The translations under genes and the position numbers were made by a program. Shown piece by piece: positions 1 through 12,480 of a stretch of DNA of 12,480 nucleotides. Under the pieces are notes generated by a model. That model was not told the origin of the DNA. It did no database searches and worked only from the letters and a program-made list of their open reading frames with translations. Position 1 is the stretch's first letter; each line of letters starts with the position of its first letter. Origin of the DNA: a virus (taxonomy: Duplodnaviria > Heunggongvirae > Uroviricota > Caudoviricetes); IMG/VR virus record IMGVR_UViG_2548877011_000005; one strand, written 5' to 3'.

Positions 1-1745
1 ACGCCAATCCGGCTGGTTGCCTCCTTCGTGAAGACAAACTCACCACGGTGAACAATCCCCGCTGGCTCATATTTGCCGCCGGTTCCCGTAAATCCTCCGG
101 TTGCAAAATGGAATTTCGCCGCAGCGGCCTGAATGGCTGCCAGCAGGGATTTCTCCTGTGCAGACAGCTGGCGACGTTGCGCCGCCTCCTCCAGTACCGC
201 GAACTGACTCTCCGCCTTCCACAAATCCCGGCGCTGCTGGCTGATTTTCTCATTCGCTCCGCTGTGCTTCTCCAGCGTCCGGAGCTCGGTTTCAAGCGCC
301 AGCAGGGCAGCATGCGCCTGGTCTTCCTGACGCTCACCGGCTGACACTTTGACTCCTGACGACTTCGGCTTTTTCAGCGTCGATTCATAATCCTTTTTCG
401 CCGCCGCCATCAGCGTGTTGTAATCCGCCTGCAGGATTTTCCCGTCTTTCAGGGCCTTATTCAGCTCTTCCTGCCGGTTAGTATATTTCTCCAGCGGCGT
501 CAGCAGACGCTCATACGCCTTCTGCGCCTCTCCGGTATACTTCAGCCGTGATGCGTCCCGTTCGGCCCGGTCCCTGGTAGCCAGTTCACCGGCTTTTTCC
601 ATATCTGACTGCAGCGTGGCCGCTGCCAGCCCCAGACGGGCATTTTCCCGGTCATCCCATGCGCCCTGCAGGTTGGCACGGAAAGAGGAGGTCTTTCCCC
701 GGCGCTGGCTCCGGCTCTGGTACCACTGCCATTTTTTATCCGCCTCATCGAATGCCTTCTGCGCACTGGCAAGCATATCCGCTGAGGATTCCGGACGACC
801 AATATCCAGAATGGCATCCCACATCGATTTGAACGCCTTCCCTGTTTTATCCGCCCAGGTCTCCAGCGTCCCCATGTTTTCTTTCAGGCGACGGGTCTGC
901 TCATCAAAGCCTTTCGTGGCGATATCGTTCGCCGCCTGTAAGGCCCCGGCCTCATCACCGGAACGCTGCAGCTGCGCAACAAACGCAATCTGCTCTGCCG
1001 TCACGTTACGGAACTGGCGCGCCATCGCAATCAGCCCCGACGTAGGGTCGGTGGTCAGTTTTCCGAAAGCCTCTGCAACCTTGTCCACCTCCACACCGGA
1101 TGCAGAAGCAAAACGCGCGACACTCTGGTTGATGGCATCAAACTGTTCACCACCACGCACACCGGCATTCACCAGGGCTGCCAGTGACTCACTCGCCTGG
1201 TTAAACGTCAGCCCTGCGGCCTGTCCGGCTCTGGAGAGCGTCAGCATGCGATCGGCAGTCAGTCCGGACTGATTACCGGAAAGAACCAGGGTTTTATTAA
1301 ACGCTGAAAGCGTGGAATCCCCCCGGTACCAGGCGTACGCCAGCGCACCTGTCGCCACCGCCAGCGAGGTGACCCCGACCATCGGCAGGGTGATCGCACC
1401 GGCAAGCCCCCTGAACATGGGGATCATCCCGCCGAAGGAGTCCTTCACCTGACCGCCCTGTTGCAGCAGGATCAGCCAGGGATTCTGACCACCGGCAAGC
1501 TGCGTGGCGATATCCGTAAACTGTGCGGGCAGGGTTCGCATGGCCGCTTTATACTGCCCGACGGAAATCCCGGCTTTTTGTGCAGCCAGCGCCTGGCGGC
1601 TCAGGCCCTGTTCAACAGCACTGGCGGTTTTTCTGGCGTCAGTCTCCAGTCCGGAAAAATGACGCCTTACCCGGCTCATCTGCTCATCGAAACGGACCGC
1701 ATCCAGACTCAGGTCAACGACCAGATCGCCTACCGGTTCAGCCAT
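1..1745 (-). CDS. H: Tail tape measure protein gpH, N-terminal 581 codons only; 3' end lies beyond the window start
   Basis: ATG at 1745-1743 (minus) overlaps the T stop at 1738-1740, as in the lambda T/H junction. The minus-strand frame stays open to position 1, which is why no complete ORF appears in the track. Translation begins MAEPVGDLVVDLSLDAVRFDEQMSR... and a checked stretch (1461-1550, reverse complement) gives AAMRTLPAQFTDIATQLAGGQNPWLILLQQ, matching lambda gpH as I recall it. Confidence 0.9.
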   Translation of the reverse strand, partial: MAEPVGDLVVDLSLDAVRFDEQMSRVRRHFSGLETDARKTASAVEQGLSRQALAAQKAGISVGQYKAAMRTLPAQFTDIATQLAGGQNPWLILLQQGGQVKDSFGGMIPMFRGLAGAITLPMVGVTSLAVATGALAYAWYRGDSTLSAFNKTLVLSGNQSGLTADRMLTLSRAGQAAGLTFNQASESLAALVNAGVRGGEQFDAINQSVARFASASGVEVDKVAEAFGKLTTDPTSGLIAMARQFRNVTAEQIAFVAQLQRSGDEAGALQAANDIATKGFDEQTRRLKENMGTLETWADKTGKAFKSMWDAILDIGRPESSADMLASAQKAFDEADKKWQWYQSRSQRRGKTSSFRANLQGAWDDRENARLGLAAATLQSDMEKAGELATRDRAERDASRLKYTGEAQKAYERLLTPLEKYTNRQEELNKALKDGKILQADYNTLMAAAKKDYESTLKKPKSSGVKVSAGERQEDQAHAALLALETELRTLEKHSGANEKISQQRRDLWKAESQFAVLEEAAQRRQLSAQEKSLLAAIQAAAAKFHFATGGFTGTGGKYEPAGIVHRGEFVFTKEATSRIG

Positions 1746-2576
1746 ACCGGACTCCTCCTGCGATCCCTTCTGATACTGTCATCAGCATTACGTCATCCTC
1801 CGTCATGTCCGCCACATCCGGGGAAGCGGGGATAACTTCATTCCCGTCCGGGCCAAAGCGGACACCTCCGGCAAGCCCTGCCGCTTTCTGCATCAGCACA
1901 TCATCTTCAGGCTCTTCGTCAGCCTCGCGCCGGTTAAGCAGACTGAAATCCAGCGGATGCATATCCGGATCGCTGAAAAACAGGCTGAGCACGGTGTACG
2001 TCAGCCCGGAAAAGTGCATATCCAGCAGAACATCATGAAAATAATGGGTACTGTAAAAGCGGTGCCAGTCGGCATACTCCGTGGATGACATCCCGGCAAG
2101 CATGGCACGCCAGTCGGGTCGCCCCATCTCACGCGCCAGTTTCAGGGCAAAACTCAGCTCACCGTCGAACACTTTCCCGCAGAAACAGGCTCTGCAGGCC
2201 CGGCGTCCTCTGTCTGTTCAGGGGCATTATTCACCACAAACTCATACATACCGGACAGCCGGTACACCACGTTTTCAGCATGAGAAATTGCCTCCGTGGG
2301 CCAGGTGGTAAGCACTTCCTGCTCAATTTGTTTAACGGCTTCATTCATGGACGGCATCTGCGTCTTCTGCGGATGGTTATGCCACAGGGACATCGCCACC
2401 AGAAACGCGCCGGTTCTGATGGCGTCTTCCACAGTAAACTTCCGATTGCTGTCTGACTCCGCCTGTTCTGCCTGCCGTTTCATCAGGGCGAGATGCTCAA
2501 TACGCTGCAGGGCTGACAGTTCAGAAAGCGTGACGGTCACACCGTTATGTTCAAATGATTCGGTTTTCAGGAACAT
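1738..2576 (-). CDS. T: Tail assembly chaperone fusion gpG-T, made by programmed -1 frameshift at the slippery heptamer 2172-2178; the T part (1738-2172) has no start of its own
   Basis: Track ORF 1738..2172 (MFDGELSFALKLAREMGRPDW...) lies in the -1 frame relative to G and overlaps its 3' end. The heptamer G GGA AAG sits in G's zero frame exactly at the overlap. The arrangement matches the lambda G/GT frameshift. Confidence 0.8.
2154..2576 (-). CDS. G: Tail assembly chaperone gpG (140 aa)
   Basis: Track ORF with ATG at 2576-2574; GGAGAG Shine-Dalgarno upstream; lies after the V stop (2592-2594). Translation MFLKTESFEHNGVTVTLSELSALQRIEHLALMKRQ... matches lambda gpG from memory. Confidence 0.93.
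   Translation of the reverse strand: MFLKTESFEHNGVTVTLSELSALQRIEHLALMKRQAEQAESDSNRKFTVEDAIRTGAFLVAMSLWHNHPQKTQMPSMNEAVKQIEQEVLTTWPTEAISHAENVVYRLSGMYEFVVNNAPEQTEDAGPAEPVSAGKCSTVS
2172..2178 (-). other. Programmed -1 ribosomal frameshift slippery site GGGAAAG (X XXY YYZ)
   Basis: Plus-strand ctttccc at 2172-2178 is GGGAAAG on the minus strand. In the G frame the codons are GGA (2177-2175) and AAG (2174-2172); a -1 slip gives GGG AAA GTG TTC GAC, i.e. ...K V F D G E L S F, which is the start of the T ORF. Confidence 0.8.
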
Positions 2577-2591
2577 CTCTGACTCTCCGGA

Positions 2592-3332
2592 TTAACTGGC
2601 GGTGACGGTGATTTCTGCAACCGCAGCAAACTCACCATTACCGGATACGACCGGAATGTTGACCTTACCTGCAGCAACGCCATTCACGGTGATGGTCATA
2701 CCACTGACCGACACGGTGGCTTTTGTTTTATCCGCTGACACCGCACGGAAGCTCTTGTCGGTTGCGCCTTCCGGCTGGAAGGCCACGGTCAGCGTGGTGC
2801 TCTTCCCTTTCACTACGGAAGCGCTGGCTGGCGTCACGGTCATGCCGGTTGCCGCTGTTACCGTGCTGCGATCTTCTGCCATCGACGGACGTCCCACATT
2901 GGTGACTTTCACCGTGCGGGTGATCACTTCCTTCGCCGTCACCGCCTTACCGATACTGCTGACCCAGCCACGGAACACATCGACCGTGCCGTTCGGGAAG
3001 CGGATTTTATAGGCACGGGTATCGCCTTCATTAAACCACGCCAGCAGCGCCTGCTGCCCCTGCTCTCCGGGCATCCACGCCAGCGTGAAGCTGGTATCTC
3101 CGGCAGATTTCTGCCCCTGCCCGGTCGCGGTCCAGTCTGCATCTTCATCATCGAGATAGCTGTCGTCATAGGACTCAGCGGTCATCTCGCCCGGCGTCAG
3201 ATCCTTCACCTTAGCCAGTCGCTGCCAGTCATCGTCTGACAACGGGTTTGCATAAGCATCACCCTTGCCGTTGTAAACCCACAGAGTGGTACCGGCACCT
3301 TTTACCGGCTCAAGGGGATTTGGTGTTGCCAT
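2592..3332 (-). CDS. V: Major tail tube protein gpV (246 aa) with C-terminal Ig-like (Big_2) domain
   Basis: ATG at 3332-3330 preceded by GAGGA. Translation [36 protein letters not shown]... matches lambda gpV; the C-terminal ~90 aa ([20 protein letters not shown]...AEITVTAS) has the Big_2-type Ig-like pattern. Confidence 0.95.
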
Positions 3333-3339
3333 ATCGTCC

Positions 3340-3735
3340 TCACATCTCGTATGTAATGGAATAAGTCAGATCTGCAGAACTCCACAATGCCATATCGTCA
3401 TCACGACGATAGTCATAGCCCTGCGTAACCATCGTGGTAATCAGTCCTACCAGTGCCGGGATCGCGGTCATCGCCGGATAAATCCGGCTTTCCATCCACG
3501 AATCCAGCTCTGAATCCGGTACCTGTGCCGGTAAAAACACCTCAATATGCAGTGTGGCCCGCCAGGTATCTGCATCCAGCTCTTCACCGGTATACTCTGC
3601 ATCCGTCAGATAAACCGCGATCGCAGGAAAATCCTCTTCGTCAAAAACAACGGGGCGACCATCAAACAGCGTCGCCCCGTGTTCATGCTGCTCGAGTGCA
3701 TCCAGCACTGCCGCACGGATATCAGTATGTTTCAT
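3340..3735 (-). CDS. U: Tail terminator protein gpU (131 aa)
   Basis: ATG at 3735-3733 overlaps the Z stop (3734-3732) as ATGA. Translation [36 protein letters not shown]...[10 protein letters not shown] matches lambda gpU. Confidence 0.93.
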
Positions 3736-4307
3736 CGTTTTATCGCAATCCTCAGCTGTTGTTTCAGCGCGTATGCCAGTTCTCCGGGCAGACGTTCACG
3801 CCGGATACGGTCAACGTTTTCATCAAACGCCTGTTTCAGTGGGGCCGCCATCGGGATTTTCACCACCTGAATAGGAAGGCGATTACGCTTTTTCCTGCCC
3901 TTGTCGTCATTGCCCTTCTCATATCTGGCCTGGGGAAGACGTTGCATAACATGCCAGCGCCCATTATTTAATCGCTGGATAAATGCCCGCTGATAACGAT
4001 GCTGACCGGCTTTGAGTATGCTGTTCGGACGACGCCTCAGCATTCTGATCCCCAGCTTAATCACAGGAAGATCACCGCGGTTAACGATAATTTTTGCATT
4101 CGGATTTCTGACCGTGGCCCGTTTCAGTCTGGACCGTTCCTTAACCAGTTTCCGTCTCACCCTGGTTTCCCGGGCAACCTGTGATGAAGACTGATTAATC
4201 GCCGTTGTGGCCACGCGGTTAATGGTCATTGCAGAAGCCGCCGGAATGGCGTTTTTACGAACCCGGCTCAGATTATCAATCGCCTGCTCAAGCCCTTTTA
4301 TCGCCAT
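3732..4307 (-). CDS. Z: Tail completion protein gpZ (191 aa)
   Basis: ATG at 4307-4305. Translation MAIKGLEQAIDNLSRVRKNAIPAASAMTINRVA... is lambda gpZ-like, and the gene sits between FII and U as in lambda. Confidence 0.9.
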   Translation of the reverse strand: MAIKGLEQAIDNLSRVRKNAIPAASAMTINRVATTAINQSSSQVARETRVRRKLVKERSRLKRATVRNPNAKIIVNRGDLPVIKLGIRMLRRRPNSILKAGQHRYQRAFIQRLNNGRWHVMQRLPQARYEKGNDDKGRKKRNRLPIQVVKIPMAAPLKQAFDENVDRIRRERLPGELAYALKQQLRIAIKR

Positions 4308-4322
4308 AATTTCACCCTGCGT

Positions 4323-4676
4323 TTATCGTCGCCGGTTAACGGCGGGTGGTTGCCCACGGTTGAGCCAGAGATAACAGCTGCCCCCGTCATCCGGAGAAAC
4401 ACGATCCACCCAGAACGTCTCACCATTAATGGTCAGCGTGTCACCACGCCGCACAGCACGAACCGTATCCGTCCGCACAAATAATGACGGGCTGCTTCCT
4501 TCAATACGGACCCCGCTACCGGCAAATCCCAGCGACTCCGGATCGTCAAAAACCCCCTGAACTTCTCCGCCACACTGTGCCCCCGAGGTGAACTGTGCAC
4601 AGAGCCCCATCACTTCAACAATCGTACTGTCCAGCCCGGCAAGGGCAGCATCAAAGGCATTCTGAAAATCACGCAT
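4323..4676 (-). CDS. FII: Head-tail joining protein gpFII (117 aa from the ATG at 4676)
   Basis: Track ORF 4323..4712 trimmed to the ATG at 4676-4674, giving MRDFQNAFDAALAG..., which aligns with the lambda FII N-terminus and abuts the FI stop (4669-4671). The C-terminus ...VDRVSPDDGGSCYLWLNRGQPPAVNRRR is lambda FII-like. Confidence 0.85.
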   Translation of the reverse strand: MRDFQNAFDAALAGLDSTIVEVMGLCAQFTSGAQCGGEVQGVFDDPESLGFAGSGVRIEGSSPSLFVRTDTVRAVRRGDTLTINGETFWVDRVSPDDGGSCYLWLNRGQPPAVNRRR

Positions 4677-5043
4677 AAACAGCCATTCCGCCATCAACGT
4701 GTGTTTTTGCATCTGAGGACATAATCAGAATCACCCGACCAACATCCGCAAGCTCAACGGATTCCCCTGTTTCACCATCAATGCCACAGAGATGGAGGCA
4801 GGTCAGAACTCTGATGCGCGTTAACGCACCGGATGTATCCTCACGAACATCATGAGCCGCGGTTTCCCGCTCCCGGATCACCGTATCCCCAACCTGAACA
4901 TCCTCGCCGGATGACTGTATTTCCTCTTCCCATTCCGCCACCCGCTGCGCTATCTCTGCGGCACTCCCGGATATATCCGGCTCACGCCCCAGAATCAGGG
5001 CCAGTTCATCAAGCCGTTTCAGATTTTGCTCTTTCGTTGCCAT
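4669..5043 (-). CDS. FI: Head DNA-packaging/stabilisation protein gpFI-like (124 aa from the ATG at 5043)
   Basis: Track ORF 4669..5091 trimmed to the ATG at 5043-5041 (MATKEQNLKRLDELALILGRE...), preceded by a G-rich Shine-Dalgarno (CAGGGGGCTGAT ATG). The longer reading would run through the hairpin after E. Position and acidic composition fit lambda FI. Confidence 0.72.
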   Translation of the reverse strand: MATKEQNLKRLDELALILGREPDISGSAAEIAQRVAEWEEEIQSSGEDVQVGDTVIRERETAAHDVREDTSGALTRIRVLTCLHLCGIDGETGESVELADVGRVILIMSSDAKTHVDGGMAVYA

Positions 5044-5057
5044 ATCAGCCCCCTGTG

Positions 5058-5086
5058 AAAAAAGACACGGGGGCATTTCGCCCCCG
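5058..5086 (-). terminator. Candidate intrinsic terminator or attenuating stem-loop after E: 7-bp GC stem (CGGGGGC/GCCCCCG), 5-nt loop, then UGUC and U6
   Basis: Minus-strand reading of 5086-5055 is CGGGGGCGAAATGCCCCCGTGTCTTTTTTCAC, lying between the E stop (5095-5097) and the FI start (5043). The U-tract is 4 nt from the stem, so this is not a textbook terminator. Confidence 0.35.
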
Positions 5087-5094
5087 CTCACGGA

Positions 5095-6123
5095 TTATTT
5101 CACCTGTACCACCACAAACTCATCCGGGTCCGGCAACACCATCAGCGGCGCGGACTGCGTCATGGTAAATTCACGGGCGGGATCCCCCACCGTCAGCCAG
5201 TGTTTCGGATAACGGGAAGAGGCCACCACACCTTCGGACAACGCCTGCGCATCCTGAATGGCACCGTAACAACGGATCCCATCTGCAGCAGTATTCCCCA
5301 AAACCAGCATGCCCTCCGGCAGATAACGTTTTTCGATACCGTCTTCTGCTATATAAGACGTTTTCGCCACCACAATGGCCAGATCGCCGTAATACCCCTT
5401 GAAGGACACCACTGCGCCCAGATCTTTCACTGCCGTTTCGAGTTGAGAATTTGAACCGCGACGGGTATCCAGTTTTTCGCGGAACAGCTTAAAACCATTC
5501 AGAAGACGCCAGACGGTACCGTCCATAATGGCAATATTCACAAGACCGCTGGCCTGGTCGCAGTAGAGGTCAAGATCATGTGTAGGATCGAACGTGTCAC
5601 GATCCTGTTTTGACCACTCCTTACCACTACCCTGAGTGATGTTATTCTTCGTCGACCTGCCAAAATCGACCTCAATTTTCTCGAACTGGTCTCCTTCCAT
5701 CGTATATTTGCCATACAACACAGCATTTACCGCCTGTATTTCTTCCACCTGGACAATCGCGTGCTCTTCCTGTTTGAGGTTATCGGTAATGATACGCAGA
5801 CGGCGGTAAGCCGGATCGTTCAGTTGAGCCGGATCTTCACCAGGAAGGCGCTCAACCGCCTGCTGGTAATTAAATTCGTGTTTCGGCTTGACGTAGCCCG
5901 GACGTAACACGCGGGTTTCACCACCACGATGACGCAGCACTTTTCCTTCAACAACCGGGGAGACATAGGCCGCCACCGGCGTTTTTCCGGTAATTTTGTC
6001 CAGCATCACCTCTTCGGTATGGAAATTCACCGTACGGCGGAAAAACAGCTCCAGAAACAGCGCACGAAATTTCACTTTTTGTTCGGTATAACCGAGTAAC
6101 TGGCGGGTCGTAAACAATCCCAT
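5095..6123 (-). CDS. E: Major capsid protein gpE (342 aa)
   Basis: ATG at 6123-6121 with AAAGGAA upstream. Translation MGLFTTRQLLGYTEQKVKFRALFLELFF...REFTMTQSAPLMVLPDPDEFVVVQVK resembles lambda gpE throughout, though clearly diverged. Confidence 0.95.
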   Translation of the reverse strand: MGLFTTRQLLGYTEQKVKFRALFLELFFRRTVNFHTEEVMLDKITGKTPVAAYVSPVVEGKVLRHRGGETRVLRPGYVKPKHEFNYQQAVERLPGEDPAQLNDPAYRRLRIITDNLKQEEHAIVQVEEIQAVNAVLYGKYTMEGDQFEKIEVDFGRSTKNNITQGSGKEWSKQDRDTFDPTHDLDLYCDQASGLVNIAIMDGTVWRLLNGFKLFREKLDTRRGSNSQLETAVKDLGAVVSFKGYYGDLAIVVAKTSYIAEDGIEKRYLPEGMLVLGNTAADGIRCYGAIQDAQALSEGVVASSRYPKHWLTVGDPAREFTMTQSAPLMVLPDPDEFVVVQVK

Positions 6124-6151
6124 AAATCAGTTCCTTTCATTCAGAAATCAG

Positions 6152-6173
6152 TCAGGCCACCGCGGTGGCCTGA
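6152..6173. repeat. Perfect 22-bp palindrome TCAGGCCACCGCGGTGGCCTGA in the D-E intergenic region; function unknown
   Basis: Read directly: 6152-6162 tcaggccaccg is the reverse complement of 6163-6173 cggtggcctga. It lies between the D stop (6181-6183) and the E start (6123); no adjacent U-run. Confidence 0.9.
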
Positions 6174-6180
6174 TAACGTG

Positions 6181-6528
6181 TTACGGCAGCGCCGCGTGAC
6201 TCAGGGCACTGCCGGCAAAGGCATTTGCCTTTTTGTGTTCATCCACACTTTCAGGCCAGCGGATTGCCTCCGTCGCAAAGGTCCCCGACTTGTAATAGGT
6301 CAGTACCGTCTCTGTGCCTTCAAGCGGCAGTACCAGTATGCCAACTGCACTACCGGCTTTCTGTCCGTCCCAGACCACCAGTTTCCCGCTGGCTTCATCC
6401 AGCATCAGGGGCGTCAGTGCCGGTGTTGCCGAGGAAATCCCGCTGCTGCCTGTGGCGGTATGAGCCGGATCATTACCGGCAAAAATACGTACTTCCGCAC
6501 GCTGTTCAGTGATGGTTTTCGTTACCAT
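6181..6528 (-). CDS. D: Head decoration protein gpD (115 aa)
   Basis: ATG at 6528-6526 with AGGAGG upstream (plus cctcct 6541-6546). Translation contains DPAHTATGSSG...TPLMLDEASGKLVVWDG...YYKSGTF...KANAFAG, matching lambda gpD motifs. Confidence 0.93.
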   Translation of the reverse strand: MVTKTITEQRAEVRIFAGNDPAHTATGSSGISSATPALTPLMLDEASGKLVVWDGQKAGSAVGILVLPLEGTETVLTYYKSGTFATEAIRWPESVDEHKKANAFAGSALSHAALP

Positions 6529-6564
6529 ATTGTAAAAACCTCCTGTTGATGGTCAGCACTGACT

Positions 6565-7167
6565 TCATGGCATAGCCATGAGCATTTTCACGTCCGCATC
6601 ACCGTCTGCTGACGTCTGTGGCACGCCACCCTGTACCGCTGCCGGTGAATGGTTCGCCATGATGCGTTCAAACAGGGCGGTTGTGGATGCAGAGACCGGT
6701 TCTGCCTTACCTGATCCCGCAGCCAGCACAGCCCGGGCGCTCTCCACAGTCATTCCCGGGCAGGCAGCCAGCTGTTCAGCCTGCGCCTCAGCCCCTTTTG
6801 CCTCATCCAGTGCCATGATCTGATCACGGAGTGAGGGTCCGGCATCCGCCTGCGGTGAAGCAGCCAGGATCGGGCGGGCTTTTTCCACCGTCATCTCCGG
6901 CATCGCCGCCAGCGTTGCCGCCAGTTGTTCACGACCGTTCGCTTCTTCACACGCCATAATGCGATCGGCTTCACTCTGCGTGGATGCCACCGGCTGCTGC
7001 GGTGCCGCCGCGGCCAGAATCGCCCGGGCCTGTTCAACGCTCATGCCCTGTTGTCCTGCCAGCATCGTGGCAAGCTGTTCACGTCCTTTCGCTTCCTGGC
7101 ATGTCAGGATCCCCATCACTCGCTGGTTCTCCTGCGCGGCGGCTTCCGTTGCAGTTAATTGCGGCAT
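6565..7167 (-). CDS. Nu3: Nested in-frame scaffolding protein (Nu3-like, 200 aa) from an internal start inside C
   Basis: In-frame ATG at 7167-7165 (Met302 of C) preceded by a strong Shine-Dalgarno, minus-strand CAGAGGAGGCACT ATG (plus cctcct 7172-7177). Lambda has the same arrangement: Nu3 shares frame and stop with the 3' part of C. Confidence 0.6.
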   Translation of the reverse strand: MPQLTATEAAAQENQRVMGILTCQEAKGREQLATMLAGQQGMSVEQARAILAAAAPQQPVASTQSEADRIMACEEANGREQLAATLAAMPEMTVEKARPILAASPQADAGPSLRDQIMALDEAKGAEAQAEQLAACPGMTVESARAVLAAGSGKAEPVSASTTALFERIMANHSPAAVQGGVPQTSADGDADVKMLMAMP

Positions 7168-8070
7168 AGTGCCTCCTCTGACATTACTGTTCAGCGCCGT
7201 GGCCATCACACTGATGGCATCCGACGCATTGACTAATTCATCCGCCAGCCCGGCATCAATGCCGGACTGACCTTCAAAAACGGCGGCCTCTGTTCCCGTG
7301 ACGGCATCAACAGACAGACCGGTAAACATCGCCACTTTTTCGGCAAACATCCGGCGCGCCGCATCAATGCGCTGCTGCATGTCCTGGCGAACCTCTGCCG
7401 GTAAGGCTTCAAACTGATTGCCATCCACCTTGTGCGCCCCTGAGTAAATCAGCGTGATATCCACACCGGCCTGCGCCAGATGACCGGCATAGCTGACATG
7501 GCTCATCATCACGCCAATGGAGCCGATACGGGATGTCTGGGTAACCAGCCGTCGGGAGCAGGCCGACGCCAGCAGCATGGCTGCAGAACAGGCCGTGTCA
7601 TTGCACAGTGCCCAGACCGGCTTCTGCTGACGGAGGCGGTAAATCATGTCAGCGCAGTCAAACGCGCCGGCGGCCTGCCCGCCCGGACTGTCAATGTCCA
7701 GCAGTACGCCCCGCACCTGGCTATCCGCCATTGCCTGCTGAAGACAGGCGACAATACCGTCATAGCCTGTCATTCCGGAAAATGGCCGCATACCCCCCAG
7801 CCGGTGCACCAGCGTGCCGGTCACCGGCAGTACAGCAATACCGTTCACCACCCTGTAAACACGGGCCGGTCGTTTACCTCCGGCCATGTACTCGTCCGTT
7901 TCAGCCAGCATTCCGGGAGCATCAAACTGTACCTGCTGTTGTGGTACCGAAAGACTTGCTGCCCCCATCTCGCGCCCGAGCGCGCAAAAGAAAACCCGCG
8001 CATAGGCGGGCTCCAGAAGCAGCGGTTCATTGAATGCTGCGGCAATAATGTGTGAAAGATTACGTCTCAC
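6565..8070 (-). CDS. C: Prohead protease / scaffold gpC (S49 ClpP/SppA-like peptidase domain, 501 aa), GTG start
   Basis: Track ORF starting at GTG 8070-8068, overlapping the B stop (8060-8062), with GAGGAG upstream. N-terminus MRRNLSHIIAAAFNEPLLLEPAYARVFFCAL matches lambda gpC; central region ...VWALCNDTACSAAMLLASACSRRLVTQTSRIGSIGVMMSH... is the S49 peptidase core. Confidence 0.92.
   Translation of the reverse strand: MRRNLSHIIAAAFNEPLLLEPAYARVFFCALGREMGAASLSVPQQQVQFDAPGMLAETDEYMAGGKRPARVYRVVNGIAVLPVTGTLVHRLGGMRPFSGMTGYDGIVACLQQAMADSQVRGVLLDIDSPGGQAAGAFDCADMIYRLRQQKPVWALCNDTACSAAMLLASACSRRLVTQTSRIGSIGVMMSHVSYAGHLAQAGVDITLIYSGAHKVDGNQFEALPAEVRQDMQQRIDAARRMFAEKVAMFTGLSVDAVTGTEAAVFEGQSGIDAGLADELVNASDAISVMATALNSNVRGGTMPQLTATEAAAQENQRVMGILTCQEAKGREQLATMLAGQQGMSVEQARAILAAAAPQQPVASTQSEADRIMACEEANGREQLAATLAAMPEMTVEKARPILAASPQADAGPSLRDQIMALDEAKGAEAQAEQLAACPGMTVESARAVLAAGSGKAEPVSASTTALFERIMANHSPAAVQGGVPQTSADGDADVKMLMAMP
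6709..7122 (-). repeat. Three tandem, diverged copies of a ~37-53 aa module (~111-159 bp) in the scaffold region of C/Nu3
   Basis: Protein copies: RVMGILTCQEAKGREQLATMLAGQQGMSVEQARAILAAAAPQ (from aa317), RIMACEEANGREQLAATLAAMPEMTVEKARPILAASPQ (aa370), IMALDEAKGAEAQAEQLAACPGMTVESARAVLAAGSG (aa418). DNA copies are visibly related at about 6730-6830, 6840-6965 and 7000-7120. Confidence 0.75.
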
Positions 8071-9652
8071 GGGGTGTTGTCTCCTCTTCCGGCCTGCGAC
8101 TCTCCGCTATCTGCTGCTGATACGCCTGCGCTATCCACACCGGACGTGAGAGTCCGGCTTTTTGCCGCTCTGCAGATTCCCTGACCTGCTGGCGGAAAAT
8201 GTCCTGATAATCCTCGCCCATCAGCGCCAGCTCTTTCTCATACGTGCTCAGTCCGGCCTCAATGCGCATCACCGATTCCTGAACCTCCTTGAGCCCGTCA
8301 ATGGCCATTCTTCCGGCACCAATCCACTCTGCCCGTGACCAGGCTGATCGCGCCTGATAAAAATCAAAACGCGCCCGTGGCGGACGGATAATCCCCCGAA
8401 GAAGTGCCTCTTCCAGCCAGCAGGAAAACATCTGCGTGGCCAGCCGGGCCGCAATAAATTTTCGCCGCCCCATAAAATAGCGCCACGACTCATTGGCAGA
8501 GGCCCTGGCACTTGAATAACTGACCTTCGAGTAATCACGGGACAACTGTTCGTAGGAAACGCCAAGACCGGCGGCGATATACCGCAGCAGCGCCTGTTCA
8601 AGCGCCGAAAATCCATTGTCTGAATCCTGCGCAGTCTGTAGTTTCAGATCATCCCCGGGGAAAAGGTGCGGAATTTTGACACCGCCCAGCGTCACGCTAT
8701 TCGTGTCATACCAGGTGGAGAACTTATCCAGAATATTAATAAGCGGATTATCCTTCTGCCCCTGCGGCGCACCGGCGATATATTCAAAGGCCTTTTCGGT
8801 ATCAAGTTCACTTTCAATCGTCGCTGCATACATCGCCTTCACTATGGCCGACTGAAGCTGTGTTGCCTGCAGGGAATCGAGCATCTTCAGCCGTTCCATG
8901 ACGCTGTAAAACTGATTAGCCCCACGGGTCTGCCCGTCCTCCACCGGCTCGAAAATATGCAGCATGGCCGGACGCCCGGTGGGAAGTTCACGCGGGATCC
9001 GTTCCCATCGTCCACTCCCGGAGCGAGGAAAATCATCCTCACAGATATGGTACGCAACGGCACGGCCATATCGATCGACCTCCACCCCGGCCCGCAGAAA
9101 ACGGTTCCCCATACCGTGTCCTGGCGTGTCCACCCGTTTCGGACTCACGGCTTTAAAACGCGTACGGAATAACTGCGTGGTTTCCGTATCCCAGACCGGC
9201 TGCACAAAGATTTCGCCGTTAAACGCATGAACGCCCACACCTTCACGGATAAATTCCGTGAACGTGCGTTTTCCTTCCACGTCGATCTCGCCAGACATCC
9301 CTTCTGCGTATTCTGACCAGGCCGCCTCCACCTCATCGACAAAACTTTTTGCCGCGGTCTCCCGCATCCCCAGCCAGCGCCAGTTCGGACGGTAGCTAAT
9401 CAGAAACATATGCCCGACAATGTGATCCTTATGCAGGGCCACCGCATTGGCCGCTATTCCGTTATTGCGCACCAGATCATCTGCACGGGCATTCCCCAGA
9501 CGCAACGCGGGCAGCAGGGCCGCATCGGCACTCTGCGCCGGTGGCAACCACTCTGCCATTTGCCCGCCAAATCCTGCACCGCCACCGTTGTAGCTGAGGC
9601 TCTCCCGAAGCGGAACGCCGTTCACATCAATCAGGACAGGCGTTCGTTTCAT
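8060..9652 (-). CDS. B: Portal protein gpB (530 aa)
   Basis: ATG at 9652-9650 overlaps the W stop (9651-9649) as ATGA. Size and position (between W and C) match lambda gpB; translation MKRTPVLIDVNGVPLRESLSYNGGGAGFGGQMAEW... is portal-like. Confidence 0.95.
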   Translation of the reverse strand: MKRTPVLIDVNGVPLRESLSYNGGGAGFGGQMAEWLPPAQSADAALLPALRLGNARADDLVRNNGIAANAVALHKDHIVGHMFLISYRPNWRWLGMRETAAKSFVDEVEAAWSEYAEGMSGEIDVEGKRTFTEFIREGVGVHAFNGEIFVQPVWDTETTQLFRTRFKAVSPKRVDTPGHGMGNRFLRAGVEVDRYGRAVAYHICEDDFPRSGSGRWERIPRELPTGRPAMLHIFEPVEDGQTRGANQFYSVMERLKMLDSLQATQLQSAIVKAMYAATIESELDTEKAFEYIAGAPQGQKDNPLINILDKFSTWYDTNSVTLGGVKIPHLFPGDDLKLQTAQDSDNGFSALEQALLRYIAAGLGVSYEQLSRDYSKVSYSSARASANESWRYFMGRRKFIAARLATQMFSCWLEEALLRGIIRPPRARFDFYQARSAWSRAEWIGAGRMAIDGLKEVQESVMRIEAGLSTYEKELALMGEDYQDIFRQQVRESAERQKAGLSRPVWIAQAYQQQIAESRRPEEETTPRET

Positions 9653-9855
9653 AACCTCACTCCCAGCGGACGACGGCGACGGCGGGTTGTCCCCAGTACC
9701 GACTCCGCATCATTGATCGCCCGGTTAAGCTCATCCAGAGAAGCTGCCGTATATTCAATTCTGCGACCATCTTTCTGGACAGACACCACCCGTTTACCGG
9801 TTAATAAATCAAGGCGCGCCTGACGCAGCGCCTGCAGTTCAGCGACTGTAACCAT
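9649..9855 (-). CDS. W: Head-tail joining / DNA stabilisation protein gpW (68 aa)
   Basis: ATG at 9855-9853 with GGAGGAG upstream; overlaps the A 3' end by 17 nt. Translation [40 protein letters not shown]... resembles lambda gpW (TGKRVATVQKDGRRVEF). Confidence 0.9.
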   Translation of the reverse strand: MVTVAELQALRQARLDLLTGKRVVSVQKDGRRIEYTAASLDELNRAINDAESVLGTTRRRRRPLGVRL

Positions 9856-11767
9856 TCACTCCTCCGGACAGCTTCGCTGCCAGTTCTTTCAGGGTTGGCC
9901 GGGTCGTCTCTTCTTCCCGGGATTTTGCCAGTACAGCCAGATCAAGCTGCCAGCGTTGCACGGACACACGTAATGCCGCGTAGGCATACACCAGGCAGTC
10001 CAGCGCTTCGTTACGCCGCTTTTTGTTATCCCACAGCAGACGCATCTTTCCTTTTTCCCACTTCTCCACAAGCTCTTCCGCCACCAGTTGCTGCGCCTCT
10101 GTCTGCGAAAAAATCTCCGGATCATCAGGAAAACGGATGGCATACGACGTGGCTTCATCCGCAGGCGTGGGATCGGCTTTCATACGGGCATAGAGAATTT
10201 CTTTTGCGGTGTCCGTCCCCACTTCGCACAGATACACGCCCCACTGATTGCGGGTTTTTGGCATGGTGATCACCGGCTTGCCATAAACAGATGCACCTTT
10301 TACCGGCAGCACCCGGAAAACACCGTGTTTTTTTGACCTCTGATAGACAATTTCGCCATCGATCCCCCCGGTGTCCCAGCAGACACGGGAAATGGTCATT
10401 TCGGTTCCGTCTGCATGGCGGTATTTTTTGTTGATCGCCACATCCACACGTAACAGCGTCTCTTCCTCATCAGGACGCCCCATAATGATGATTTTATCCA
10501 CCAGAAAGGCTTCCTCTCCCGGAGCCCATCCCCAGACATACATCTCAAAACGGTTTCGCTGCGAGTCAATGCCCGCCGTCAGATAAACCACTCGGGAAGG
10601 CACCGCAGCCGTGTAACGCACAACCTTATCCATCAGCACCTGGTGATCGAGTTTTTCGCCCACGGCCTCTTCCCAGGTCTCGCCCAGCGTGGTGTTCACA
10701 AAGGTTTTCAGGCCGTTGGGATCTTTCAGTGCATCCAGCCAGTCATAGACAATCTGTACCCAGGTGGTGAACGGACTGTACGCCGTCCAGATATGGAATG
10801 TGATGGAGCGCGGCGGCGGAATTTCATCACCCCGGGCGCTGAAAAACATCAGGCCGTCACGGGTCCACATGCCCGTGTTTTCACAGATCCACCGCCCGTT
10901 ACTCTGGTCAAGCTCAGACTGATGGATCACACAGCCATGATGCTCACAAAGGTAGAAAACACTTTCTGGCTTATTCTTCTCCCACTTAAGACCGAAAGGC
11001 GAGGCATCATCGCCAAATTTCAGATACTGCTCCTCCCCACAGTGCGGACAGGGCACATAAAAACGCATGAAGTGTGCCGACTCGTTAGCGGCTTTTTCGA
11101 TCTGGCAGGAGCCTTTGATTTTAGGCGTCGAGCCGCGAATGGATTTTGGCCATACAGAGCCCTCAATACGTTTATCCCCCAGCAGGGTTGGCGAACCCTC
11201 TTTTTCAACATCCGGTTCGAACGAGGAAAGCTCGTCATAACAGACCACATCCACGGATTTTTCACGGTAGTTTTTTGCTGCCGCACCACCCAGACACCAG
11301 AACCCCACACCGGAGGAAAAACGCTTCAGGGTGAGCGTATTATCGCGGTGTTTTCTTCCGAACCATGGAGCCAGCTCCAGCAATGCAGGAACATCCCTTA
11401 TCGTTGGCTCAACATGAGATTTCATAAAATCTTCAGCAGCTGAGTCCGTGGGCTGAAAAAGAAGGCTGTTGCGTGATTTATGCTCAATAAAATAAGCCTC
11501 CACTCCCAGCAACATCTTTGTATAACCAACACGGGCAGATTTAATCAGGTTAACCGTGCGAATCAGATCGTTGCCCATACAGTTCATGATGCCAACCTGA
11601 AACGGCAGTGTTTCCCACCGCCCCGGGGTATAAGACGACTCTTTAGGAAGGTAATAATGTTTATTGGCCCACTGAACTGTCGTCAGTGGAACAGGAATAA
11701 TGAGAGATAAAAGCCCTGTAGCTATCGCACCGGCTGCATTAGCTGCCTTCTGCGCGTCTGAAATCAT
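9839..11767 (-). CDS. A: Terminase large subunit gpA (642 aa from the ATG at 11767; track ORF extends to 11809)
   Basis: Lambda gpA-like along its length ([72 protein letters not shown]). The ATG at 11767 has a GGTGGA Shine-Dalgarno and gives the same N-terminal length as lambda before YYLPKES; overlap with Nu1 is then 29 nt. Confidence 0.93.
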
Positions 11768-12287
11768 CGATCCACCCGCCCACGTTTTCACCGGCCTTAG
11801 CTGAAACATTGGAGGCTTTCGCGATTTCAGTTTTCACCACATCAAGGTGTGATGGTGAAATGTCCGGATATTTACGCTGTAATGTCAACGGCACACGCAC
11901 AAGTATCCCCGAAATCTCCTGTGCCACACGTTGTAGAATGAAGGTAAACAGTTCAGTTTCCAGCACTACTCCGTCTTCACGGGCATTTTTCAGTTCCTGC
12001 GCATCTGCCTGCGCTTTTGTGAGTCGGTAGCGTTCATAGTCAATGGTGCCGGGTTGTAAATCTGACTCCGCTGCCGCACGCAAATCGTCCAGTTCTTTGC
12101 GGAGCTTTTCGTTTTCGATATCAGTTTCCCTCTGCGCATACCACTGAATTGCCATGGCAGTATCAAATACAGATTCAATGCCCTTACTACCTTTGGAGGC
12201 GCAAGGGAGTCCCTGAGACTGCCAGCGTTCAATCGTCCGCGGGTCCACGTTGAAAATTTCGGCAAGCCTCTTTTTATTAACCTTCAT
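11739..12287 (-). CDS. Nu1: Terminase small subunit gpNu1 (182 aa), N-terminal winged-HTH DNA-binding domain
   Basis: ATG at 12287-12285, about 190 nt from the cohesive end as in lambda. Translation [28 protein letters not shown]...[28 protein letters not shown] matches lambda Nu1 (MEVNKKQLADIF...RTIQNWQEQGMP...). Confidence 0.93.
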
Positions 12288-12315
12288 GAAAACAACCCAT
12301 TATCAAATACAAGGC

Positions 12316-12326
12316 CCGACATGAAA
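12316..12326 (-). promoter_or_regulatory. Candidate terminase small-subunit binding repeat, R1-like position (ccgacatgaaa)
   Basis: Forms an 11-bp perfect inverted repeat with 12354-12364; about 151-161 nt from the cohesive end (lambda R1 is ~150-165 as I recall). Confidence 0.45.
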
Positions 12327-12353: not shown

Positions 12354-12364
12354 TTTCATGTCGG
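12354..12364 (+). promoter_or_regulatory. Candidate terminase small-subunit binding repeat, R2-like position, inverted (tttcatgtcgg)
   Basis: Exact reverse complement of 12316-12326; about 113-123 nt from the cohesive end. Confidence 0.45.
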
Positions 12365-12416
12365 ACCTTTACGGATGCAATATTAAAGAAAAACAAAAAG
12401 TTATATTCGAGAAGTA

Positions 12417-12429
12417 CCGACACGATTTT
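12417..12429 (-). promoter_or_regulatory. Candidate terminase small-subunit binding repeat, R3-like position (ccgacacgatttt; partial match)
   Basis: Shares CCGACA-GA with the 12316 copy in the same orientation; about 48-60 nt from the cohesive end (lambda R3 is ~50-65 as I recall). Confidence 0.3.
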
Positions 12430-12464
12430 CCCTGAAAAATTTTCATAAATAGTGAAAAACCGCG

Positions 12465-12476
12465 AGGTCGCCGCCC
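12465..12476 (-). other. cosN: 12-nt cohesive-end sequence GGGCGGCGACCT (minus-strand reading), the terminase nicking site
   Basis: Plus-strand aggtcgccgccc at 12465-12476 is the reverse complement of the lambda cohesive end GGGCGGCGACCT. The following minus-strand bases (CGCGGTTTTTCACTATTTATGAAAATTTTTCAGGG) stay close to the lambda left end as I recall it. Confidence 0.85.
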
Positions 12477-12480
12477 CGTA

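Follow-up and report, generated by a model that had tools for sequence, protein, structure and literature searches.

A phage 21-type cos site, read through at cosN, at the end of a draft contig of Shiga-toxin-producing Escherichia coli NCCP15657

A cosN and the adjoining cosB of phage 21 type, without cosQ, are located at the very end of a 12,480-bp stretch of DNA (the window). They probably represent the virion-map left end of a phage 21-like prophage of Shiga-toxin-producing Escherichia coli (STEC) NCCP15657, on a contig that was cut at the cosN core by the assembler. The window corresponds to the entire contig AJLU01000005.1 (1–12480, reversed) of assembly GCA_000258785.1, which belongs to the draft genome AJLU00000000 of this strain. 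Since the window is the whole contig, base 12480 ends the source record, and the cos is effectively located at a contig end. The source being a bacterial isolate genome project, the sequenced material was bacterial genomic DNA and not virion DNA. Among the relatives compared, no record identical to the contig was found, and the best full-length matches were 94–96 % identical.

The cos of phage 21 and lambda is among the best-studied packaging signals. In both phages, the small terminase subunit binds to the R boxes of cosB and integration host factor (IHF) is bound at I1; the large subunit is then positioned to nick cosN at sites 12 bp apart. Packaging proceeds rightward from cosB, into the head-gene side, and cosQ is needed to end it.

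The cohesive-end 12-mer shared by lambda and phage 21, GGGCGGCGACCT, has a single exact match in the whole window, on the minus strand at 12465–12476, where it aligns with bases 1–12 of phage 21 (OL657228), annotated as cos nicking subsite. By arithmetic, ~0.0015 exact matches to a 12-mer are expected in 12.5 kb on both strands, and shuffled sequences gave an expectation of 0.09 matches with at most one mismatch allowed. On the plus strand the window ends with ...CCGCGAGGTCGCCGCCCCGTA, and the minus strand starts with TACG GGGCGGCGACCT CGCGG TTTTTCACTATTTATGAAAA... The 12-mer is thereby flanked by the partly symmetric cosN half-sites TACG and CGCGG, the whole being exact at 12460–12480 (minus strand). 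By homology to phage 21 and lambda, the nicks are predicted between 12477 and 12476 on the minus strand and between 12464 and 12465 on the other strand. Near-identity to phage 21 further suggests that terminase would cleave at this site to yield 12-nt 5' overhangs.

The final contig bases TACG (12477–12480, minus strand) correspond to the last four bases of a lambdoid right end (phage 21, ...GGTTACG) and are identical to those of phage 21 DNA (...CAGGTTACG) in M81255, OL657228 and PhiR57_1. Four bases alone match by chance at a frequency of 1/256. Despite this short match, the cos context is unambiguous as judged from sequence similarity, with 99.5 % identity between the last 1 kb and the phage 21 region comprising cos, gene 1 and gene 2. 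A preliminary description, made from the window alone, had recognized the cohesive end as internal, with TACG on the minus strand 5' of it as in the lambda right end; its coordinates and wording were correct, the span 12461–12480 comprising CGCG of the right half-site, the 12-nt cohesive end and TACG. Its further claim that cosN is read through and does not form the end of a packaged linear genome also holds, in view of TACG beyond G(+1) and of bacterial genomic DNA as the source. In a packaged left end after end repair, G(+1) would be the very first base, as it is in the virion record OL657228. In contrast, four more right-end bases precede G(+1) in the contig, which therefore does not display a packaged end.

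Between cosN and the gene of the small terminase subunit, the boxes R3, inverted R2 and R1 as well as I1 were identified on the minus strand, all of them identical to the annotated phage 21 sites. Positions were transferred from the phage 21 records M81255, X02501 and OL657228, in which cosN, R3, I1, R2, R1 and both terminase genes are annotated. R3 (AATCGTGTCGGTACTT; 12412–12427, from OL657228 50–65, identical in the alignment) is a predicted binding site of the small terminase subunit, and I1 (12391–12403, from OL657228 74–86, likewise identical) is a predicted IHF site. Inverted R2 (reverse complement TTTCATGTCGGACCTT) locates at 12354–12369 and R1 (TTTCATGTCGGGCCTTG) at 12310–12326, corresponding to OL657228 107–122 and 150–166, respectively, each shifted by a 1-bp insertion. 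In a five-way alignment, the only difference between the window and phage 21 from TACG through cosB is this one extra C (12388, minus strand; TTTTTCTTT vs. TTTTTTTT), which sits in a T-run between I1 and R2 and changes their spacing by 1 bp. The same cos allele was found exactly in five relatives, i.e., four IMG/VR contigs (L005–L008) and a chromosomal prophage (L131, NZ_CP148374.1). Because the extra C recurs in all of these, it represents a natural allele and not a sequencing error; presumably, it is tolerated by terminase and IHF. At the right end of phage 21 (...GATCCAACAGGTTACG), cosQ lies 24–30 bases ahead of the nick, and all relatives examined have a cosQ-like GGGTCCT at −30 to −24. 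cosQ thus falls outside the window, which contains only the last four right-end bases (−4 to −1).

Adjoining genes for a Nu1-family small and a gpA-family large terminase subunit were identified next to cosB. Gene 1 (11739–12287, minus strand, start at 12287) codes for the 182-aa small subunit (phrog_57, E 1e-64; PF07471 Phage_Nu1) and shares 99.5 % DNA identity with gene 1 of phage 21. Gene 2 (9839–11767, minus strand) codes for the 642-aa large subunit (phrog_15; PF05876 GpA_ATPase; PF20454 GpA_nuclease), the enzyme nicking cosN. Across the whole gene-position collection, the exact 642-aa protein is on record only on AJLU01000005.1, its DNA being ~99 % identical to that of phage 21. Head and tail genes in lambda order occupy 1738–9855 (minus strand) and, according to PHROG matches and the Pfam families of the called genes, encompass W, portal, S49 protease/scaffold, decoration protein, major capsid protein, FI, FII, Z, U, V, G and T. 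A GGGAAAG slippery heptamer is located at about 2172–2178 (minus strand), just ahead of the gene G stop codon and where the T frame overlaps; it is the conserved −1 frameshift site of the lambdoid G/GT tail chaperones. The contig is a mosaic in that its identity to phage 21 is ~98 % in the head genes and lower in the tail genes.

The tape-measure gene H (1–1745, minus strand; PF06791 TMP_2, 582 residues to the contig end) lacks its 3' end at the other end of the contig. Compared to all relatives examined, it harbours a 576-bp (192-codon) in-frame deletion at window position 139/140: window 1–139 aligns with 3001–3139 of the relative L130, and window 139–2185 with 3715–5773. The H frame is open across the deletion and free of stop codons. 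The junction was absent from the 5,426 complete E. coli genomes searched and from all fetched loci. Its two sides share only ~1 bp of homology, on which ground an origin as de Bruijn artefact was rejected. It is either a real deletion particular to this strain, in which case the tail would be expected to be shorter, or a rare misjoin located 139 bp inside the contig.

The contig carries phage genes only and contains neither an att site nor a host gene, and the state of the element in the sequenced strain was approached through its relatives. In each of the five relatives sharing the cos allele, the sequence extends beyond TACG and includes a right end with cosQ. In NZ_CP148374.1, this allele is part of an integrated prophage adjoining mlrA, with the integrase ~25 kb away; upstream of cos, a YlcI/YnfO-family gene and genes for a lysis protein, lysozyme and holin are present, followed beyond the lysis genes by Q, regulatory and replication genes, the integrase and then host genes. 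In PhiR57_1, S, R, Rz and bor are located upstream of cos. Of the 11,562 places matched in complete E. coli genomes, 11,520 are chromosomal, so that an integrated prophage is the expected state. The prophage map would be a circular permutation of the virion map, with the lysis genes on one side of cos and gene 1 (Nu1) on the other. In this internal position, cos is spanned by genomic reads, and read-through of cos is indeed the rule in prophages.

The contig is, on these comparisons, best read as the cos region of an integrated phage 21-like prophage, with a circle or concatemer equally compatible with the contig taken by itself. Origin from replicating circular or concatemeric phage DNA or from a phage-plasmid, instead of an integrated prophage, would lead one to expect read-through of cos just as well and would agree with a contig devoid of att site and host gene. 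It is nevertheless regarded as rather unlikely, given that an isolate genome project was the source and that the closest relatives with the same cos allele are chromosomal (the bulk of the places counted above, with NZ_CP148374.1 as the worked example). The two forms are moreover not exclusive, an induced culture containing both. From the sources proposed in the preliminary description, the integrated prophage (the default for an isolate genome) and the circle or concatemer could thus be retained, while an assembly circularised across cos was dropped, the window being a 12.5-kb fragment and not a circularised genome.

For comparison of the contig end with other cos sites, lambdoid cos sites were gathered from IMG/VR by means of the pattern GGGCGGCGACCTCGCGG, and 83 distinct sites were tabulated; positions +1 to +17 are fixed by this pattern, and only −4 to −1 and the flanks constitute independent observations. 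Though outside the search pattern, TACG at −4 to −1 was invariant in all 83 distinct sites. The first variable position is −5 in the leftward direction (T in 74 sites, C in 9) and +18 in the rightward direction (G in 56, T in 26, A in 1). This survey delimits a 21-bp invariant cosN core composed of TACG, GGGCGGCGACCT and CGCGG (TACGGGGCGGCGACCTCGCGG; 12460–12480, minus strand), and the contig end coincides exactly with its outer border. Because TACG is invariant in every lambdoid cos tabulated, it holds no information on the right arm that was attached and demonstrates read-through only. An adaptor or vector remnant as origin of TACG was ruled out, since the native right end has these four bases in 83/83 sites. 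No other contig ending at cos was found among ~150 cos-bearing loci (~130 from IMG/VR and 13 from species-representative genomes). The break at cos is a particular event at an uncommon break point.

That the contig ends at cos by coincidence, or through post-assembly trimming, e.g., of a span flagged as lambda-derived vector, is highly improbable. In its favour, lambda cos fragments are common in vectors, lambda cos turns up in unrelated genome records, and the effect is confined to one contig. A vector match, however, would extend through cosN to at least +17 and its trimming would remove cosN rather than leave four extra bases, and the prior for a random break to hit precisely this border of the invariant block is only ~1 in 10^3–10^4 per prophage.

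Most likely, the assembler broke the contig at the cosN core. STEC strains carry several lambdoid prophages, and several lambdoid prophages with a common core in one genome cause the assembly graph to give a border at that position. The break would accordingly have occurred at the 21-bp core common to all lambdoid prophages of NCCP15657, the presence of a second prophage being itself presumed. Such a border differs from a physical DNA end, which could have arisen if spontaneous induction had supplied many cos-cleaved linear genomes and the collapse of coverage at the nick had stopped the assembler. STEC lambdoid prophages do induce spontaneously, and the contig ends within four bases of the terminase nick, which would be unlikely for random breaks along a ~45 kb prophage. 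Yet end-repaired left ends start at G(+1), and TACG beyond this base implies that read-through molecules built the contig end. Furthermore, a coverage step alone does not break a graph, and the contig border is at the edge of the invariant core and not at the nick. A physical end is therefore considered very unlikely.

For the break by the assembler, we infer two versions, which are not ranked. In version A, NCCP15657 would possess two identical copies of a 12.5-kb packaging/head/tail module, each attached to a different right arm; on collapse of the two, a single contig would have resulted, its limits being set by the first base that differs. Version B would involve the de Bruijn graph. For sibling strains from the same laboratory, Illumina GA IIx reads at ~233x were put together in CLC Genomics Workbench 5.1, which uses a de Bruijn assembler. 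The graph would branch at +18, where T is present in phage 21-type and G in lambda-type sites; with a word size of 22, the first strain-specific word would start at −4, i.e., 21 bases before the first strain-specific base. The automatic word size of the CLC assembler at that amount of data was presumably 22.

The two ends of the contig bear differently on these versions. Where the contig ends within H, 69 distinct relatives vary at the first base beyond it (C in 45, G in 21, T in 3), while they are almost uniform over the 38 outermost bases of the contig itself; this pattern was counted for version A. H is, however, rich in variable sites, 14 of 40 positions beyond the contig being polymorphic, so that the base in question lends this version weak support. 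A k−1 overlap at this end was examined at window position 22, which is invariant in the 69 relatives and thereby counts against version B. At the cos end, the phage 21-type left arms sampled always have G and T at −6 and −5, respectively, and differ only from −7 outward. This counts against version A, as the partner with a different base at −5 that it would need was seen only with lambda-type left arms.

The survey also revealed free combination of arms across cosN. In IMG/VR loci L010–L129 (compared from −12 to +33), right-end variants (−12 to −5) are freely reassorted with left-arm types (+18 onward). The phage 21-type left arm was seen with six right-end variants, and left-arm alleles that are identical next to cos are joined to at least three and up to six right-end variants differing from −7 outward. 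The common right end CGACAGGT is conversely joined to four left-arm types. This pattern points to frequent reassortment across the cos core, which looks like a module boundary. The border at −4 could hence mark a real recombination joint, with NCCP15657 containing two identical 12.5-kb modules on different right arms joined at the cosN core, a reading that is possible but held to be doubtful. Both modules would have to include the shortened tape-measure gene. If true and generalised, it would make the 21-bp core, or cos ends cut by terminase, a preferred crossover point for left and right arms.

Several further cos arrangements were encountered. Three IMG/VR contigs contain a convergent double cos 536–879 bp apart (L016, 4192–4727; L020, 3797–4675; L033, 2364–3242), each of the two facing regions having its own cosQ, cosN and cosB-like sequence. 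A palindromic assembly artefact was rejected for these three on the basis of a self-reverse-complement identity of ~0.33; they could represent two elements abutting head to head or a cos-carrying satellite. Lambda-type cosQ–cosN–cosB was also detected in records of unrelated organisms, namely the cyanobacterium Raphidiopsis brookii D9 (L255), Aeromicrobium sp. (L256), Archangium violaceum (L257) and Alicyclobacillus fastidiosus plasmid unnamed3 (L258). Three of these four records are identical to the consensus over the stretch shown, and the sequences are probably lambda DNA or cos-vector contamination. Three high-GC matches to the 21-mer, including Dactylosporangium sp. (L249) and Streptomyces yanii (L260), are devoid of cos context and look like chance matches.

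Nothing in the contig departs from the known phage 21/lambda system, and the finding is a remark on provenance and not a discovery. The read-through of cos is real but ordinary and has little biological weight. As the window is a complete draft contig, features at its ends coincide with assembly boundaries. The cos core moreover seems to be a short common repeat able to fragment assemblies of genomes with several lambdoid prophages.

The element of the contig is, by its sequence, a phage 21-type lambdoid 5'-extended cos of an already known kind, with every defining feature that could be tested being present. Phage 21 (M81255, X02501, OL657228) possesses the same cosN 12-mer, TACG, R3, I1, R2 and R1. 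Identity amounts to 99.5 % in genes 1 and 2 over the first kilobase and to ~98 % over the 8-kb head operon. In contrast, the tail genes are more diverged, and over the whole contig identity is ~94.6 % in four alignment pieces. The contig further differs from phage 21 by the one extra C between I1 and R2 and by a tape-measure gene that is 576 bp shorter, and cosQ and R4 lie outside of it. Lambda shares the identical 21-bp core TACGGGGCGGCGACCTCGCGG and the overall layout of cosN, followed by cosB with R boxes and IHF site and then by Nu1 and A. It has G at +18 where the contig has T, and the R boxes of the contig as well as its predicted Nu1 specificity are of phage 21 type; the terminases of lambda and phage 21 differ in cosB specificity. 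Integrated phage 21-like prophages in complete E. coli chromosomes are ~96 % identical over the contig, and the prophage at mlrA in NZ_CP148374.1 has the identical cos allele, including the inserted C, and the same gene order. Prophages of this kind continue past cos into cosQ, the YlcI/YnfO-family gene and the lysis genes, whereas the contig stops at −4.
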